A DNA stretch of 64,000 nucleotides from contig OY776562.1 in assembly GCA_963675785.1 (NCBI GenBank), positions 2,016,001 to 2,080,000 of the forward strand. The letters are read 5' to 3'. The DNA is from Anaerolineae bacterium (lineage in GTDB: Bacteria; Chloroflexota; Anaerolineae; UBA1429). Position 1 is the stretch's first letter; each line of letters opens with the position of its first letter. Both the position numbers and the translations under genes were made by a program. Shown here piece after piece: positions 8,657-14,866 of the stretch. The notes beneath the pieces are model-generated. The model did no database searches. It was not told where the DNA came from and saw only the letters and a list, made by a program, of their open reading frames with translations.

Positions 8657-9398
8657 CAGCAGCACCAGTTCTCACAGAACCAACAAAAAGCCAGTGATTC
8701 AGGAAAAGAAAAAGGCTATCAGTGATTTGTGGATTGCCATTATCGTGGTGGCTATTCTGGTGACGGCTATGCTCTTGATTTATCATTATGCCAACAAAGA
8801 TTCGGATGCTTCTATCGTGGTGGAGACGCCGACGATTACCGGTACGGCGACACCGACGACAGAGGCTACGCAGGAGAGCGACGACGTGAGTTTGATGCAG
8901 TGGGACAGTGCTCCCGATATGATCATCGACACTTCCAAGGACTATCAGGCCATCATCAAAACGGCCAAGGGCGACATTACCATCGAATTAGCCGACGACC
9001 TAGCCCCCATCACGGTGAACAACTTTGTTTTCCTGGCACGGCAGGGCTATTACGACGGGGTTACCTTTCATAGAGTCATTGAGGGGTTCATGGCTCAAAC
9101 GGGTGATCCCACTGGCACTGGAACTGGCGGACCCGGCTATACCATTCCTGATGAGTTCAGCGACGAGCTGCGACATGACGCTGCTGGCATCGTCTCCATG
9201 GCTAACACAGGCTATGCCGACACTGGCGGAAGCCAATTCTTTATTACTTATTCTGCCCAATCTCACCTGGATGATGTACACTCTGTCTTTGGACATGTCA
9301 TTGACGGCATGGATGTGCTGGAAAGCCTGACTTTACGTGTCCCCGGTGATGAGATTCAAGGGGATGTAATCGAAACCATCGAGATCATCGAAAGCTAG
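8595..9398 (+). CDS. membrane-anchored cyclophilin-type peptidyl-prolyl isomerase
   Basis: [31 protein letters not shown]; basic N-terminus, one TM helix, Thr-rich linker. Confidence 0.9.
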
Positions 9399-9401
9399 TT
9401 G

Positions 9402-9971
9402 ATGACTGAGGCCGAGCCCCGGCAGGGCTTTTGGAAGCACTATGGAACGCGCATTCTGGCGATCGCGTTCTCGGTAGCAATAACCGTCGTAGTTGTGCTG
9501 AATGCTGATCGTATGCAAGAGATGCAGCGATTGGGCTACTTGGGCGTGTTTATTGTTGCCCTGGCTGGTAATGCGACCGTAGTGCTGCCTGTGCCCAGCA
9601 TGGCTATGACCTTTGCCAGCGGTTCGGTGTTGAATCCCTGGTTAGTGGGGGTAGTAGCCGGCCTGGGGGAGCCCCTTGGTGAACTGACGGGGTATTTGGC
9701 CGGTTATGGTGGAAGCGCCATCATCGAAGAAAGTGCTCGGTATCAGCGCATCAAAGCAAGCCTGGAAAAGCACGCCTTTTTGACACTGTTCATTCTCTCA
9801 GCCATTCCTAATCCTTTGTTCGATCTGGCAGGCATGGCTGCAGGCGTACTGCATTATCCGGTGTACAAGTTCCTCATAGCTTGTTGGTTGGGTAAAACGC
9901 TCAAGGCCTTGACTGTAGCTTTTATCGGCTCTATCTCATTGGGGGCAGTCCAACAGATCTTTGGCCTTTAG
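9402..9971 (+). CDS. VTT-domain (DedA/YqaA family) membrane protein
   Basis: GELTGYLAG, IPNPLFDLAG, GK motif; hydrophobic. Confidence 0.82.
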   Translation: MTEAEPRQGFWKHYGTRILAIAFSVAITVVVVLNADRMQEMQRLGYLGVFIVALAGNATVVLPVPSMAMTFASGSVLNPWLVGVVAGLGEPLGELTGYLAGYGGSAIIEESARYQRIKASLEKHAFLTLFILSAIPNPLFDLAGMAAGVLHYPVYKFLIACWLGKTLKALTVAFIGSISLGAVQQIFGL

Positions 9972-9983
9972 CAGGAATCAAAC

Positions 9984-10032
9984 AAAAAGCAGGGAAGGAT
10001 GCAAGAGCATTAGATCCTTCCCTGCTTTTTTT
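9984..10032. terminator. bidirectional intrinsic terminator
   Basis: AAAAAGCAGGGAAGGAT...ATCCTTCCCTGCTTTTTTT between convergent genes. Confidence 0.85.
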
Positions 10033-10070
10033 GCCAAACCAAAGTCAACCGGATTTTGGTTGGAATCCCT

Positions 10071-11423
10071 TCAACCCTGAAGCACTGCCGAAGCGATAGA
10101 AAAATAGATCAAGAGGCCTGTGGCGTCTACCACAGTGCTCATCAACGGGCCGGAAACCAAGGCAGCATCAATGCCGACACGAACGGCCAAAAGCGGCAGC
10201 AGCGTTCCTGCAAATTCGGACCAAACCACGATGCAGAGCATGGCCAACCCCACCACCAGCGCCACTTCGATGCCACTATTCCACAGGGCGAGGGCAACCA
10301 AAAATCCGCCCAGGGCCAGCAACAATCCAAGAAGCAGCGAAGTACGCAACTCTCGCCATAGAACTGCCAGTGCATCACGTGTGTGAATATCGCCAACAGC
10401 CAGAGCACGAATGATGGTTGCAGTAGTCTGCGAGCCAACATTGCCACCGGTGCCAGTGAGCAGCGGCACAAAAACGCTGAGAATGATCACACTGTTTAGC
10501 AGCTCTGAGAATCTGCTCATAACGGTACCCGTTAGCGTGCCGGTTACAAAAAGGAGCAACAACCAGCCGATTCGCTTGCCCACCGAGCTGAGAATCGTCG
10601 TATCCAGATAAGGGCGCCCCAAAGGTACGCTACCGCCAAAGCGCTGCACGTCCTCCGTCGCTTCGTCTTCTAGCACATCAACCAGGTCATCGACGGTGAT
10701 AACACCTACAAGGTGATGTTCTGCATCCACAACCGGCACGACACTCAAGTCATAGCGCGCCATCAGACGGGCCACATCCTCCTGTGGCGTATCCGTAGTG
10801 GTAAAAAGCACATCGGTATCCATGATGGAGCGCATGGTATCGTGGCTTTCGGCACGGATGAGATCAAGAGCGCTTACCGAGCCAAGAAGCCGGCCCTCTG
10901 CGCCAATAACGAAAAAATATGAAAACTCGGGACCGCGTGGTTCCCAGGCTCGTACAAGAGCCGGTGCTTCTCGGGCCTGCATACCCGCCGGAAAAGCAAG
11001 GAACTCGGTCGTCATCAGACCGCCGGAGGTGTCATCTTCGTGTTCAAGCAGCGATTCGACTTCGGCTGAATCTTGCATGACGTCCAAAGTAGCCTGGGCC
11101 ATTTCGGGAGACAGATCGTTCAAAAGGTCTGCCGCCTCATCGGGCTCCATCTCGTCCAAAATTCCGGCAAGATCGCCAGCATTCAGACGCGTCGCTACTA
11201 TAGCCGCATCCTCATCCTCCAGTTCCTGAAGGATGTCGGCAGCAGATTCGACATCAAGCTCGGGCAGCAATGCATCCTGCTGTTCGGGCAGCAGGTCTTC
11301 AAAGACATCCGCCTGGTCGGGCGGCAAAAGGGATTCGATGATTTCGATGGCACTGGTGACGTCGTCACGCTCAAGAAGCTCGCGGACACGCATCAAGGTG
11401 CGATCAAGAGTACGGGACTCCAT
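10071..11423 (-). CDS. mgtE: magnesium transporter MgtE
   Basis: Acidic N domain, two CBS domains (GGLMTTE, GVITVDD), GGNVGSQ and SGPLMSTVVD TM motifs; ATG 11423 after AAAGGAGG. Confidence 0.95.
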   Translation of the reverse strand: MESRTLDRTLMRVRELLERDDVTSAIEIIESLLPPDQADVFEDLLPEQQDALLPELDVESAADILQELEDEDAAIVATRLNAGDLAGILDEMEPDEAADLLNDLSPEMAQATLDVMQDSAEVESLLEHEDDTSGGLMTTEFLAFPAGMQAREAPALVRAWEPRGPEFSYFFVIGAEGRLLGSVSALDLIRAESHDTMRSIMDTDVLFTTTDTPQEDVARLMARYDLSVVPVVDAEHHLVGVITVDDLVDVLEDEATEDVQRFGGSVPLGRPYLDTTILSSVGKRIGWLLLLFVTGTLTGTVMSRFSELLNSVIILSVFVPLLTGTGGNVGSQTTATIIRALAVGDIHTRDALAVLWRELRTSLLLGLLLALGGFLVALALWNSGIEVALVVGLAMLCIVVWSEFAGTLLPLLAVRVGIDAALVSGPLMSTVVDATGLLIYFSIASAVLQG

Positions 11424-11488
11424 ATGGCCTCCTTTGCAGAGCAGCAGATTGGCTTGCCAATACCGCTCCACACCAGAAGGCTGGCCTG

Positions 11489-11611
11489 TTAAAGGCCGAG
11501 GCAACTCCTATGGGGTGAGGTGGGGTAAGGGGTCAAGACCAACTCTGCACAACCCTGACGATAGCTAGGACTCGGTATCGGTATGTCAGGTTGTGATGAG
11601 GGGTCTTCCAT
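11489..11611 (-). CDS. putative proline-rich leader peptide (uORF) of mgtE, 40 aa, MEDPSSQPDIPIPSPSYRQGCAELVLTPYPTSPHRSCLGL
   Basis: Hand-translated (below the ORF-track cutoff); SD-like GGAAGAGGT 5' of the ATG; 8 Pro in 40 codons; stop 65 nt before the mgtE ATG. Confidence 0.55.
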   Translation of the reverse strand: MEDPSSQPDIPIPSPSYRQGCAELVLTPYPTSPHRSCLGL

Positions 11612-11692
11612 GTTATCTACCTCTTCCAATAGATGCAGGTGATGGGTTGACTGCATCGCAATCGAATAATTCGCGCTGGTGCTCGTAAGCTC

Positions 11693-12175
11693 TTACTTGA
11701 GAGACGAAAGACGTCGCTGCACTTCATCCAGCTGTTGCTCAAGGGCTTCTGCCTCTTCGTGCAAACGTCCAACAGCATCATGCTCGCAACCACCCTCGGC
11801 GGGCGTTTCAGCATCATGATCATGACCCGCGCACGCTTCAACCCCATCGAGCTTGCCACCTAAAAACTGCTCGACTGACTGTTGAACCGTACCCATAGCG
11901 CCAGTCACGGGCTTGATGCCAAACTGCTCAAAAAACTCTACCGCACGAGCGCCCATGCCGCCGGACAACATTACGTCCGCACCCAAAGAGTTGATAAATT
12001 GCGGCACCTGGCCTGGTTGATGCGATGTATAGAATGGATTATCTACTGTTTTGACGGCCTCAACTGTACCGCCTTCAGAGACATCCACGAGCACAAAGAA
12101 AGGGCAACGCCCAAAATGGGGCGCTACAACCGAGATCAATCCATTATTGTTATCAGCCGATACAGCAATACGCAT
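11693..12175 (-). CDS. NifB/NifX-family (dinitrogenase FeMo-cofactor-like) protein with His/Cys-containing tail and coiled coil
   Basis: MRIAV, HFGRC, GGMGARA, C-terminal CAGHDH...CEH. Confidence 0.8.
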   Translation of the reverse strand: MRIAVSADNNNGLISVVAPHFGRCPFFVLVDVSEGGTVEAVKTVDNPFYTSHQPGQVPQFINSLGADVMLSGGMGARAVEFFEQFGIKPVTGAMGTVQQSVEQFLGGKLDGVEACAGHDHDAETPAEGGCEHDAVGRLHEEAEALEQQLDEVQRRLSSLK

Positions 12176-12177
12176 GG

Positions 12178-12663
12178 CTATTGCTCCCTCTCTAGTTCGC
12201 TTATGCGGACCATAATTGCCGCCAATCGCTTTCGAAGTTCTGCGGCTTCACGAGCCAGACTGGCGATCTCTTCTTCTCTGGTCTTTTGTGCAACAGCTAC
12301 AGAAGGGCCTGCGTGCGATCCAACCGTCGCATCGGCCACGGCAACAGCCTTTTTACTCAGGACCTGCGCCACAGCCTCACGAATAGTGCCGCTCTTGATC
12401 TGATATACAGCAATACCCGCAGCCGAAAGCACTTCCATCGCGTTGGGGCCTACGTTGCCCGTAATAACAGCCTCTGCGCCACGCTCTACAATGAACTGCG
12501 CACTTTGGATACCGGCCCCACCACTGGCCCCCGCCGAAGCATTCTCTGCCGCCTCGATTGCCATCGTCTCCGTATCAACAAAAACGAGATTCGGGCACCG
12601 CCCAAACATCGGACTGATGGGGTCATCCAACTGAGACCCTTTGGCCGAGACAGCTATAAGCAC
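12178..12663 (-). CDS. NifB/NifX-family protein with C-terminal coiled coil (DUF5320-like)
   Basis: FGRC, GGAGIQSAQ, ITGNVGPNA, SHAG. Confidence 0.82.
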   Translation of the reverse strand: MLIAVSAKGSQLDDPISPMFGRCPNLVFVDTETMAIEAAENASAGASGGAGIQSAQFIVERGAEAVITGNVGPNAMEVLSAAGIAVYQIKSGTIREAVAQVLSKKAVAVADATVGSHAGPSVAVAQKTREEEIASLAREAAELRKRLAAIMVRISELEREQ

Positions 12664-12736
12664 GGCGTACGCTCCCCTCTATTGATGCGTAAAAGTAACC
12701 TTAGCCGGAACATCCTAACACCGCCAGCAGGCCCTG

Positions 12737-13732
12737 TCAACTGTCTTCCGCAGCACCGGCAAGACCTGCCACACAAGCTTGCTCGATTATGTCGAGAAGA
12801 TGGAGCATCACCTCTAGATCGACCGGCTCTAGTAGCTGATTGCGCCATTCGGTAGCCTTATGCAGGCCCCGCACATAACGCACCAGGTGTTTACGAAACT
12901 GAATGATGCCTCGCTGCTCACCATCAATGGCAACCATCTCCAGCAAATGCCGTCGGATCATAGCAAAGCGTTGCTCTAGCGGCACGTTCTCAATATCGAC
13001 GCGGGCGAATATCCAGGGGTTCCCCACAGCGCCACGACCGATCATCACACCCTGACAGCCAGTAACCTCATAAATGGCATCGATGTCGGCGACACTGCGC
13101 ACATCGCCATTGGCGACTATGGGAATCTGCACCGCTTTAACCACGCGAGCAATAGCCTGCCAATCGGCCTGACCACTGTATGCCTGTTCTTTGGTGCGAC
13201 CGTGTACAGCTACCATGGCCGCACCGTTATCCTCCAGAACTCGAGCAGCCTCAACATGAACAAGGGACTCGGCATCCCAGCCCAGGCGAATCTTGGCCGT
13301 AACCGGCACCGACAGCGATGAGGTCAGGGCGTTCATGATGACACCTATGTGGTCTAGTTCTTTCAGGAGAGCGGCGCCGCGGCCTCCCCCGGCAACACGG
13401 CGTGCAGGGCAGCCCATGTTTATGTCGATGAAATTGGGGTGTGCATAGGCGATAACTGCCTCAGCTGCACGCAAGAGTTGTTCTGGCTCGCGGCCCAACA
13501 GTTGAACCGATAGTGGGCGTTCTTCTTCTGTATAGGCGAACAGCGGCTGGCCGCGTTCGACCATGTGAACCAGCCCCTCATCAGAAAGAAGCTCAGTATA
13601 GCTGATAGCCGAACCCTGCTCGCGGCAGATGCGCCGAAAGGGAGCATCCGAGTACCCGGCCATGGGGGCCAGGATCAGATCGCCATCCAGCTCTTTGTCC
13701 GCAATTGTCAGAGGAGGGTGTGAACCCTGCAT
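12737..13732 (-). CDS. dusB: tRNA-dihydrouridine synthase B
   Basis: LAPMAG, INMGCP, KIRLGW, HGRT, NGD, MIGRG, RKH. Confidence 0.92.
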   Translation of the reverse strand: MQGSHPPLTIADKELDGDLILAPMAGYSDAPFRRICREQGSAISYTELLSDEGLVHMVERGQPLFAYTEEERPLSVQLLGREPEQLLRAAEAVIAYAHPNFIDINMGCPARRVAGGGRGAALLKELDHIGVIMNALTSSLSVPVTAKIRLGWDAESLVHVEAARVLEDNGAAMVAVHGRTKEQAYSGQADWQAIARVVKAVQIPIVANGDVRSVADIDAIYEVTGCQGVMIGRGAVGNPWIFARVDIENVPLEQRFAMIRRHLLEMVAIDGEQRGIIQFRKHLVRYVRGLHKATEWRNQLLEPVDLEVMLHLLDIIEQACVAGLAGAAEDS

Positions 13733-14866
13733 TTAACGCACCGTTCTCTTGCCACCACCCTGCTCCCAGCTAGCAAGCAAGGCCTGGACTTCTTCTCGGG
13801 TCACCACAGGCAGATCGAACATCATGGTCTGCTTGAGGCAGCTAGCTGCATCGCCCACCAGAACACCCTTTTGCAAGGCTGCTGCAGCACCAGTTTCTGT
13901 GAGCAAACCATAATAAAAGCCGGCATTCCAGGCATCGCCGCCACCCAGACGGTCCAATAAGGTGATGCTACGCACGGCAGGCGAGCGATAAAAATGCCCC
14001 TCGGCATCCATGGCCGCAGATTCCCAACGATGCTGCTCAAAACTATCAGGGTAGCGCAGCGTAAGTGCTACCAAACGCAGGCCAAAACGCTGCAACAGCC
14101 CGCGCATAAACACTTGCAAGTCATCATCAGACACAGGCCCCAGATCACCGTTCACAATCGCCTGGGGGCTATACTGGCCAATGCCAATATCGTACAAGCC
14201 GGCGATGTTGACGATACTGGTGATAAGAATGTCTACCTGCTCCTCCAGGATTGGCGTCATCACCGCCAACGCTTCCTGTTTGCCCCACAGGGTAGAGCGA
14301 TAGTTATAATCCAAGCCGACCAAACAATCCGTGGGGCGAGCCACCATAGCCTCATTAAAGGCTTCGAGCAGATAATTGCGGGCATAACCGCTGTGGCGGG
14401 CCAAACCAAAGGAGATGCCAGATGTGTGAAAGAGCCGGCAGCCTGCTAGCGCTTGTTCCCAGTCCACCATGCCAGCACCGAGCTTGCTGGCCGCCGAGTG
14501 CATTCGCTGATACCAGCCCGCACCAGGGCGCGGCGTACGGCCCAATTCATACAAAAACCGCCCGATGGGCTCTGTTTGAGGGGCCCAACAAAAATGCTCC
14601 GTGTTGACGCCCATAGAACGGGCAATATCCCGTACCTGCCAGCCATAGGGATTATCGGGTACGCGCGTGATAAAGGAAGAAGACAGCCCCAGACGCTGCA
14701 GAGCAATAGCCAAAGAGTATTCACTGCCTGCTAAAGAGACATCCACTCGCCGCGTACGCTCCAAACGCTCGCCATCAGCGGGCGTATCCCGTACCATCAC
14801 TTCGCCAAAGGTGACAAAGGCGTTTGCACCCAACGCCTCAGGAGTATCTGCTAGGATATCGAACAT
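13733..14866 (-). CDS. PfkB-family sugar kinase, 2-keto-3-deoxygluconate kinase-like
   Basis: TFGEVM, DYNYRSTLW, DRLGGGDAWNAG. Confidence 0.8.
   Translation of the reverse strand: MFDILADTPEALGANAFVTFGEVMVRDTPADGERLERTRRVDVSLAGSEYSLAIALQRLGLSSSFITRVPDNPYGWQVRDIARSMGVNTEHFCWAPQTEPIGRFLYELGRTPRPGAGWYQRMHSAASKLGAGMVDWEQALAGCRLFHTSGISFGLARHSGYARNYLLEAFNEAMVARPTDCLVGLDYNYRSTLWGKQEALAVMTPILEEQVDILITSIVNIAGLYDIGIGQYSPQAIVNGDLGPVSDDDLQVFMRGLLQRFGLRLVALTLRYPDSFEQHRWESAAMDAEGHFYRSPAVRSITLLDRLGGGDAWNAGFYYGLLTETGAAAALQKGVLVGDAASCLKQTMMFDLPVVTREEVQALLASWEQGGGKRTVR

Follow-up and report, generated by a model that had tools for sequence, protein, structure and literature searches.

The sensing of cytoplasmic free Mg2+ is, to our knowledge, known in detail for only a few systems, namely the M-box riboswitch and the leader open reading frames (ORFs) MgtL, MgtQ and CorL of enterobacteria. 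The M-box (ykoK) is a Mg2+ riboswitch that regulates mgtE in Bacillus. The leader of Salmonella mgtA was reportedly first described as an RNA sensor for Mg2+, by Cromie et al. in 2006, and corresponds to the Mg sensor entry of Rfam (RF01056). Here we describe the gap directly 5′ of an mgtE gene on the minus strand of a 64,000-nt stretch of DNA from an Anaerolineae bacterium (Chloroflexota). The whole stretch is called the window, and the gap is called the window leader. To the reading that this gap is a cis-regulatory leader, in which an upstream ORF (uORF) rich in Asp, Glu and Pro (D/E/P) acts as a ribosome-based Mg2+ sensor and competing helices gate the Shine-Dalgarno (SD) sequence of mgtE, we assign a probability of roughly 0.55.

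In the portions of the published accounts drawn on here, translation of MgtL stops within its first six residues (MEPDPT); this stop is enhanced at low Mg2+ and is used to induce mgtA. The abortion is attributed to a destabilising EPDP motif, with ribosome drop-off at low Mg2+, and N-terminal D/E/P clusters are described as generally provoking "intrinsic ribosome destabilisation" (PMC11282234; bioRxiv 10.1101/2021.02.02.429294). The criterion given is D/E/P enrichment in the six residues after Met, or 4 D/E/P per six-residue window (bioRxiv 10.1101/2021.02.02.429294). The mgtL-mgtA system acts via Rho (PMC11282234), as does CorL, a uORF that precedes corA in E. coli and Salmonella (PMC11552253). 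MgtQ is an 8-codon ORF in the 219-nt mgtC-mgtB spacer, and its acidic codons are needed to free the sequestered ribosome-binding site (RBS) of mgtB (Choi et al. 2021, PMC8092293). A full-text literature search, with subscription-only papers outside its coverage, found no account of such leaders in Chloroflexota.

Results

The upstream ORF of the window

The leader lies in a 268-nt gap between mgtE and a gene with a Nitro_FeMo-Co domain. Its features and flanks are listed below (MFE, minimum free energy fold; aa, amino acids).

10071..11423, minus strand: mgtE, 450 aa, Mg2+ channel (Pfam MgtE_N, CBS and MgtE)
11428..11435, minus strand: SD of mgtE, AAAGGAGG, 4 nt 5′ of the mgtE ATG, read directly from the sequence
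11437..11472, minus strand: hairpin between the anti-SD and the SD (MFE)
11475..11481, minus strand: anti-SD GCCUUCU, 8 nt 3′ of the uORF stop, pairing with AGGAGGC of the mgtE SD across the hairpin (MFE)
11489..11611, minus strand: uORF, ATG at 11611-11609 and stop TAA at 11491-11489, 40 codons plus stop, reading MEDPSSQPDIPIPSPSYRQGCAELVLTPYPTSPHRSCLGL
11512..11532, minus strand: C-rich tract CCCCUUACCCCACCUCACCCC inside the uORF, including an anti-SD-like CACCUC
11549..11594, minus strand: long irregular hairpin within the uORF, ACAACCUGAC / GUCAGG-G-UUGU, with an inner GAUA/UAUC stem and the IPIPSPSY codons as its loop
11620-11623, minus strand: SD core of the uORF, GAGG, 8 nt 5′ of the uORF ATG
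11632..11657, minus strand: 5′ hairpin GAUGCAG-N12-CUGCAUC upstream of the uORF SD, arms 11632-11638 and 11651-11657 (7 nt, 100% complementary)
11693..12175, minus strand: gene with a Nitro_FeMo-Co domain, 160 aa, upstream neighbour of mgtE

The uORF has its own predicted RBS and ends 65 nt before mgtE, in a leader directly upstream of a Mg2+ transporter gene. An earlier prediction from the letters of this DNA (the original prediction) had named this ORF, an SD-like sequence before it (GGAAGAGGT, GGAAGAGGU, minus strand) and 8 Pro in 40 codons, and all three are present. In the list of ORFs, the uORF lies inside a 55-aa ORF (11489..11656). Its start (MEDPSSQPDIPIPSP) is rich in D/E/P, with E2, D3 and P4, then PDIPIP at residues 8-13, and 8 D/E/P in total among residues 2-15. 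Residues 2-7 (EDPSSQ) hold 3/6 D/E/P and residues 8-13 hold 4/6; the uORF has at least 4 D/E/P in a six-residue window within residues 2-13.

A contig from a near-identical strain (X9) showed 0 changes in the 123-nt uORF vs. 4 in the 83 nt just upstream. There were also 0 changes in the first 123 nt of mgtE and 1 in the spacer hairpin (+ 11448). The X9 variants at 11617 and 11626 spare the GAGG core but alter acidic codons of an in-frame extension starting at TTG (D>Y, E>K), which makes ATG 11611 the likelier start of the uORF. The in-frame TTG (11629) and ATG (11656) were considered as true starts and are less likely: neither has an SD, and X9 alters two acidic codons of the extension and the ATG itself.

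The leader stretch is single-copy in the source genome, which consists of one 3.2-Mb contig. No congener was present among the compared genomes, and the best MgtE orthologues, from the same family, were 57-62% identical. A lone 40-codon ORF in 268 nt is no more than the chance expectation; the evidence against chance is comparative.

Relatives in the window's own family

Loci with mgtE, together with their upstream DNA, were taken from genomes of the family and class, from 80 metagenome contigs and from 80 species genomes. The closest mgtE loci of the species collection come from metagenome-assembled genomes of Anaerolineae, Caldilineales, Thermoflexales, Ardenticatenia and Promineifilaceae (all Chloroflexota). 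In 4 other genera of the window's family, an upstream ORF that starts ME[DE] or VEE was found at -190..-250 from mgtE.

L004: uORF MEDGSQASADPVERY... (MEDGSQASADP...); L032, of the same genus, MEDASQANADPAERC...
L005, and its tandem paralogue L034: uORF MEESSQRPADPDDRS... (MEESSQRPADP...)
L003: uORF VEETSSHEADLDDQR... (VEETSSHEADL...)
L002: uORF MSAEPEDQPDSR... (...EPEDQPD, with an upstream ATG as its start)

In an alignment by eye, the window and its family relatives have in common [A/G]UGGAAGA and UCA CAA, followed by the hairpin; the xCCGAC of its 5′ strand encodes [P/A]-D in each of them, in one shared frame. The window is one codon shorter than the relatives before this strand, and the frame is preserved up to the hairpin. 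The stem is CCUGAC/GUCAGG in the window, GCCGAC/GUCGGC in L004, L032, L005 and L034, and GCCGAU/AUCGGC in L003, with compensatory changes at three positions of the stem in the by-eye alignment of window and relatives. The inner stem covaries even between two congeners. Third-position differences preserve either the residue or the charge (GAC/GAU, CCC/CCU, GAA/GAC, CGC/CGG).

Conservation of frame and peptide upstream of mgtE, a point raised by the original prediction, extends over the start, the N-terminal residues and the frame up to the hairpin. Past the hairpin loop it ends: the length differences are not multiples of three and the peptides are wholly divergent. PSPSYR and the Pro run are thus specific to the window. 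PSPSYR, once proposed as the arrest motif, is replaced by unrelated residues in the relatives (ADPVERY, ADPDDRS or ADLDDQR at this position), and its codons form a hairpin loop; the P-x-P-x-P run is absent from the relatives and has to be given up as a conserved feature.

The C-rich tract has counterparts in the relatives (UUAGCCCCCACC, CUAACCCCCAC or GAGCCCCCUGG), and the uORF stops of these relatives lie 0-20 nt before an anti-SD-like CCUCC/CCUUC (by eye). The layout of anti-SD, hairpin and SD was the same as in the window in the MFEs of 3/5 family relatives (L003, L005 and L032); in those of L002 and L004, the pairing of part of the SD or of the region around the start codon was local instead. 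No counterpart of the 5′ hairpin (11632-11657) was seen in the relatives. MAFFT misaligned the window row among the family leaders, and there was no significant nucleotide match, so the link between window and family rests on the shared position, uORF start, frame and hairpin.

Ahead of the ME[DE] uORF, at approximately -600 to -290, five of the family leaders (L003, L004, L005, L032 and L034) have an additional element that is missing from the window. Its parts are a TTGACA...TAnAAT promoter, a second small ORF and a G+C-rich hairpin with a U-run behind it. In the family this ORF is MKPNYDPLST..., MKSGSEPPSY... or MKKSAEPPSS... and ends at a conserved UAGCC. The same type of element was seen in L038, L039, L044, L045 and L134 (approximately -330 to -70), with the ORF MSQEESNSESGEYPGSPG... 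in L038 and L134. This further element looks like a tandem attenuator of the terminator type, and it has no Rfam match. Tandem mgtE paralogues, each copy with its own leader, occur in G004 (L005/L034) and in L064 (second R1 match, see below, at 2636-2793). The second mgtE copy of L084 (L084b) lies behind a different, repeat-rich upstream region.

R1-type leaders

From better-sampled mgtE leaders we built a covariance model, R1, with the helices P1, P2 and anti-SD/SD. In many leaders the element is approximately 175 nt long and adjoins the mgtE start codon, and its parts come in the order TTGACA-17-TAcAAT promoter, uORF, P1, P2 and anti-SD/SD. Hairpin P1 is GUAGCA-GGGAC/GUCCC-UGCUAC, helix P2 has 9-10 bp and the loop AAAUAACCUAGCCCCCC, and the anti-SD CGCCUCCGGG is paired with the SD strand CCCGGAGGUG. 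P2 and the anti-SD helix were predicted by RNAalifold.

A search of 99 sources (the window and the loci) with R1 gave 35 matches at E<1e-10, in metagenome loci and every one directly before mgtE. The 80 species-genome loci gave 21 matches, and R1 was found in 13 of 151 genomes sampled from the class and in 2 of 151 genomes sampled from the phylum. Downstream of 15 R1 genome loci, the gene was mgtE in 9, corA (PF01544) in 3 (one of them behind an MgtE_N remnant), an MgtE_N+CBS protein in 1 and an ABC permease in 1; the remaining one was a partial leader only (L131). Two unrelated Mg2+ channel families thus stand behind R1, which argues for a Mg2+-related signal. The translation-based Mg2+ sensor of the original prediction survives in outline, as an acidic/Pro small ORF that recurs before mgtE and corA within conserved helices, and is not upheld in the details of its motif.

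Cells of the P1, P2 and anti-SD/SD helices were 85% paired vs. 36-48% with slid partner columns, and pairs changed on both sides numbered 16 vs. 4-8 in the slid controls (0/500 shuffles reached 16), in an alignment that was fitted to the model and so leans towards structure. An alternative pairing, between the C-run of the P2 loop and the tail of the anti-SD, is mutually exclusive with anti-SD/SD; it was 83% paired with 11 doubly changed cells, and its control slid by +1 was also high because both partners are homopolymer runs. Examples are CCCCCGG/CCGGGGG, ACUCCGG/CCGGAGU in L125 and UCCCUGG/CCAGGGA in L095. The stem covariation raised by the original prediction is accordingly seen in the R1 helices and, by eye, in the compensatory changes of the family hairpin; for the window, the uORF hairpin and the anti-SD/SD helix are predicted, and no covariation-supported alternative pair was found.

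By the covariance test, the window leader is not a member of R1; as judged from the sequences, it shares the start region of the uORF and the general layout. Comparison of the leaders shows that the lineage has kept the uORF as well as the helices.

The R1-type leader that precedes an ABC permease (L130 in G088; 1501-1675, 77 bits, uORF MDDNQLEDGRP...) lies before a BPD_transp_1 ORF from 1663. In L048, L062 and L097 (approximately -260), a second short ORF with a GUG-GAU/GAA-GAC start (MDDASPT..., MEDTSPT...) stands just upstream of the R1 promoter; it may be the remnant of a duplicated leader, or chance.

Signs of coding and RNA conservation in the leaders

The family genomes served to define the motif M[DE][DE], which was then looked for at other loci, in ORFs of 12-70 codons at most 350 nt upstream; the leader sets were dereplicated and the shuffles preserved dinucleotides. 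It was found in sense in 18/60 metagenome leaders (antisense 1/60; shuffles 2.1 +/- 1.4, max 7 of 200) and in 20/67 leaders of the species genomes (antisense 2/67; shuffles 1.9 +/- 1.4). A uORF starting M-[D/E]-[D/E] was thus present in approximately 30% of dereplicated Anaerolineae mgtE leaders. At least 4 D/E/P among residues 2-7 were found in 17/112 of all leaders in sense and in 1/112 in antisense (shuffles 4.7 +/- 1.9).

In R1, an in-frame start no more than 12 codons 5′ of the GAA-GAC anchor, uninterrupted by a stop, was found in 34/36 leaders, and in the other frames in 5/36 and 7/36; the two misses are misalignments of the anchor. All of the correctly aligned leaders without a start adjacent to the anchor (10/10) have an in-frame ATG 2-6 codons upstream, giving peptides such as MEEIKPEDEPP, MDEFESEDGPA and MDDNQLEDGRP. 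In 30/33 leaders the uORF ends with a stop in alignment columns 189-198, immediately 5′ of the C-run. The type of stop swaps among TAG, TAA and TGA at one column, and a second group has UAA in another frame, 5 columns earlier. Column entropy at codon positions 1, 2 and 3 was 1.21, 0.74 and 1.30 (nine codons; permutation P = 0.013). Acidic/Pro starts were also seen in leaders that could not be aligned as nucleotides (MSEDPVPRKKR..., MPEDPAPGSR..., MNDSDVPDSRP..., MDEVPSPRANAG..., MDEISSPSNPG... and MDEVPSP), and SD-like purine runs lie 5′ of most uORF starts (by eye, not counted).

These results bear on the possibility that the leader is a pure RNA sensor, riboswitch-like or with a directly Mg2+-dependent fold. 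The conserved helices and the competition among C-run, anti-SD and SD would then do the sensing, and the ORF would be a by-product whose translation is absent or irrelevant. Much in the leaders fits such a sensor. The helices of R1-type leaders covary, ATG, GTG and TTG all occur as start codon at the anchor, and the most conserved stretches are kept as nucleotides while the residues vary: GUAG, GGGAC/GUCCC, CCUGCCAACCAAAUA and the C-run are conserved in their nucleotides, with R/S/G at xGU and S/R at AGx. The frame over the P2 loop differs among groups, and CCUAGC of the hairpin loop is likewise read in different frames in different groups. The peptide is not conserved over the 3′ two-thirds of the uORFs, where different frames run over the same conserved nucleotides; much of what is kept is therefore RNA, and some of the apparent conservation of the peptide may follow from that. 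A precedent is the Salmonella mgtA leader, reportedly first described as an RNA sensor by Cromie et al. 2006.

An irrelevant ORF is, however, hard to reconcile with an in-frame start in 34/36 leaders vs. 5-7/36 in the other frames, with the replacement of a lost adjacent start by an upstream ATG (10/10), or with a stop position that is kept while the type of stop shifts. Acidic/Pro N-termini that recur where the nucleotides are unalignable, the purine runs before most uORF starts and the lack of any matching Rfam family also speak against it. We regard a pure RNA sensor as unlikely, though a serious contender. In our reading, which retains a translated uORF, the first approximately 10 codons appear to behave as coding sequence and the rest as structured RNA that would be traversed by ribosomes.

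Two other groups of leaders were seen. L051, L139, L183, L192 and L200 (approximately -340 to -55) carry a family of uORFs of 53-55 codons, M[DE]E.SSP..PG...LQPRP....RAAWGR..MNN.IRR.P.G, which appears to be conserved over its whole length, unlike the other types. L009, L068, L069, L085 and L089 have, in the last approximately 130 nt before mgtE, another leader type without an acidic uORF, made up of a promoter, GCCGAUACGCUUGGCAUCUAUCCAACUGAUAGCCCAG... and then GGCCAGGUGUUCGGCUUUUAUUUU, which looks like a terminator. The L009-type leader could be a different RNA element; L009, the one leader of its type that was scanned, had no match in Rfam at the gathering threshold.

Folding of the window leader

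The 286-nt window leader folds better than its shuffles (z = -2.56; 2/200 shuffles equal). The inverted repeat named in the original prediction is present, with arms 11549-11559 and 11585-11594, one bulged G and the IPIPSPSY codons in its loop; its outer part has arms 11543-11554 and 11589-11600 (83% complementary). The second hairpin of that prediction (GATGCAG/CTGCATC, 11632-11657) is also present and 100% complementary, and the X9 variant at 11656 converts an A-U pair to G-U, so that pairing is retained. Long-range pairing of the GAAGAC codons with GUCUU/UUUCC after P2 was considered and set aside: it occurs in the window MFE and, by eye, in some relatives, inconsistently.

In the free-RNA ensemble, the predicted probability of the mgtE SD being unpaired is 0.00, as it is paired with GCCUUCU at 11475-11481. 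With a ribosome placed on the uORF stop, this value rises from 0.00 to 0.23. The SD of mgtE is thus predicted to be sequestered in the window leader. An anti-SD/SD helix is found in every variant examined, which points to control of translation initiation.

The C-rich tract that had been noted earlier lies at 11512-11532, where the GC skew of the plus strand is +0.5; in the predicted MFE of the free RNA, it pairs with the SD region of the uORF itself. The original prediction had drawn on Rho-dependent termination, in which full translation of the uORF would expose or cover the C-rich tract as a Rho utilisation (rut) site and Rho would terminate transcription before mgtE. The ingredients are there: Rho is encoded in the source genome (Rho RNA-binding domain, 116 bits), the RNA is C-rich and G-poor at 11500-11539 and 11560-11619, and mgtL-mgtA and corL-corA serve as precedents in the portions of the accounts cited above. 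The C-rich stretch, however, is short (approximately 20 nt), is interrupted by a G-rich hairpin strand and lies inside the uORF, and the anti-SD/SD helix alone explains control of initiation and makes Rho unnecessary. Moreover, the C-run of R1 has a covarying base-pairing partner, and some relatives use intrinsic terminator-like hairpins further upstream. Rho is not needed in the arrangement that we favour, and an attenuator that depends on it is improbable.

The absence of an M-box, already noted in the original prediction, was borne out: an Rfam scan of 9000-14000 at E<=10 gave 7 matches, none of which was an M-box, a Mg sensor or another relevant family. Rfam scans of 38 related loci gave no Mg2+ element, only tRNAs and chance matches to miRNA and sRNA families.

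Discussion

Proposed mechanism

We infer translation of the uORF, a response to Mg2+ and the direction of the effect from the layout of the leaders. The ribosome that reads the uORF would be the Mg2+ sensor. At low Mg2+, the D/E/P-rich start would make elongation falter or abort, as by intrinsic destabilisation in MgtL and MgtQ, and the progress of the ribosome along the uORF would select among competing helices and leave the RBS of mgtE open or closed. The uORF of the window runs through the C-rich tract and ends beside the anti-SD; since its stop is 8 nt before the anti-SD, completed reading should open the SD, as for mgtQ-mgtB. The geometry of R1 suggests another course. Early abortion at low Mg2+ would leave the C-run free to capture the anti-SD, so that the SD is open, and complete reading would cover the C-run, so that the SD is closed. 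In both cases the output looks translational, via the predicted anti-SD/SD helix, and closest to that of Salmonella mgtQ-mgtB.

A wider proposal, which we hold tentatively and at somewhat less than even odds, is that ribosomal sensing of Mg2+ by acidic/Pro peptides is widespread, perhaps ancient, and not just enterobacterial. In Anaerolineae it would operate within an undescribed RNA family (R1 and its variants, absent from Rfam) that serves mgtE and corA, with the uORF stop beside a C-run, and C-run and SD would compete for one anti-SD. The window would carry a diverged version, its uORF lengthened through the C-run as far as the anti-SD, which may reverse the coupling. If our reading of the leader is confirmed, a phylum far from the enterobacteria would also sense Mg2+ with the ribosome itself, and such sensing would extend to the MgtE channel and to CorA with a translational rather than a Rho-mediated output. 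An alignment of natural variants (start position, stop position, C-run/anti-SD covariation) would make the mechanism directly testable, and a cis-regulatory family would be added to the annotation of Chloroflexota, where such gaps now stand blank.

Points against and the chance explanation

Beside the RNA-level conservation described above, several results weigh against our reading. On 9000-14000 with the filters off, the best match of R1 in the window leader reached 3.4 bits (E 0.88), and nhmmer with the window leader gave no match at E<=10. R2, a covariance model made from five family relatives and built without the window, had its best match in the 64-kb window at the start of the uORF, but at 10.1 bits (E 0.47) and with the hairpin not included. 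Under the strict form of the published criterion (at least 4 D/E/P in residues 2-7), the uORF of the window falls short with 3. The codon period in R1 is weak, with P = 0.013 to 0.14 by block, and the leader counts overstate significance because many of the compared leaders are related. A ribosome at the uORF stop opens the mgtE SD only partially (0.23), as calculated by a method that cannot model pseudoknots, and the direction of control appears not to be the same in the window type as in the R1 type. The corA gene of the source genome has no such leader; the gap before it is approximately 90 nt long and is without an acidic uORF. Lastly, a consensus scan of 11300-12300 found no sigma-70-like promoter, and weak TTGCGA-type candidates only were seen there by eye, so co-transcription of mgtE with the Nitro_FeMo-Co gene is possible. 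Of 22 sequencing runs surveyed, one was RNA; it matched 5% of the sequence words and gave no reads on 11300-11800.

That the uORF is a chance ORF in an ordinary structured spacer, whose only effect is constitutive SD masking or mRNA stability and whose likeness to the relatives is coincidental, is very improbable: the window leader has no significant covariance-model or nhmmer match to any other leader, 40 codons at 55% G+C are not rare and no promoter was found in 11300-12300, but 4 other genera of the family have an ME[DE] uORF at the same distance, with the same hairpin and in the same frame, the motif enrichment holds in two data sets, and X9 has 4 changes in the 83 nt upstream vs. 0 in the uORF.

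Gene neighbourhood

Directly upstream of the leader, the window has tandem Nitro_FeMo-Co (PF02579) genes (11693-12663) of 160-161 aa each, and both proteins end in a coiled-coil-like C-terminal tail. L002 retains one such gene upstream of mgtE; L004 instead has a dihydrouridine-synthase-like gene there. On the other side of mgtE, a perfect 17-bp hairpin at 9974-10035 (AAAAAGCAGGGAAGGAU ... AUCCUUCCCUGCUUUUU), flanked on both sides by A-runs and U-runs, separates the convergent ends of mgtE (stop 10071) and of a plus-strand gene ending at 9971. This hairpin looks like a bidirectional intrinsic terminator; the sole Rfam call on it is a chance miRNA match.

Comparison with known systems

The M-box resembles the window leader in its place upstream of mgtE and in its expected effect, which is to shut the gene off at high Mg2+. 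It differs in that it holds no uORF, and RF00380 has no match in the window (E<=10) or in the 38 related loci.

The comparisons with the enterobacterial ORFs are limited to the portions of the accounts cited above. CorL is also a uORF in a stem-loop of the leader of a Mg2+ channel gene, with translation of the uORF inverse to expression of the channel, and R1-type relatives likewise precede corA. It differs in being Rho-mediated and in having few acidic/Pro residues, and the corA of the source genome is without such a leader.

MgtL was compared with the window peptide by description. The two are alike in having D/E/P right after Met (EPDP in MgtL, and EDP followed by PDIPIP here), in an ORF that overlaps RNA helices, which are alternative ones in MgtL and may be so here, in a Mg2+ importer gene downstream and in the proposed sensor, ribosome drop-off at low Mg2+. 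The gene that is controlled is a different one, and the output is Rho-dependent transcription termination in mgtL-mgtA vs. predicted SD sequestration here.

MgtQ-mgtB of Salmonella differs from the window leader in length (8 codons vs. 40), in the transporter (the P-type ATPase MgtB vs. the MgtE channel) and in lineage (Enterobacteria vs. Chloroflexota). In the portions of its account cited, the ORF contains no long hairpin or C-rich tract, both of which are present here. The likeness lies in the arrangement as a whole. In both, a long spacer between genes (219 nt in the mgtC-mgtB operon; 268 nt in what may be an operon here, where no promoter was found) contains a short ORF that precedes a gene for a Mg2+ transporter. 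In both, the RBS of this gene is held in a stem-loop and the output is translational, and for the window these two features are predicted. In both, acidic codons come early in the ORF; they are ribosome-destabilising in MgtQ, and the uORF of the window would resemble it in this respect by sequence.

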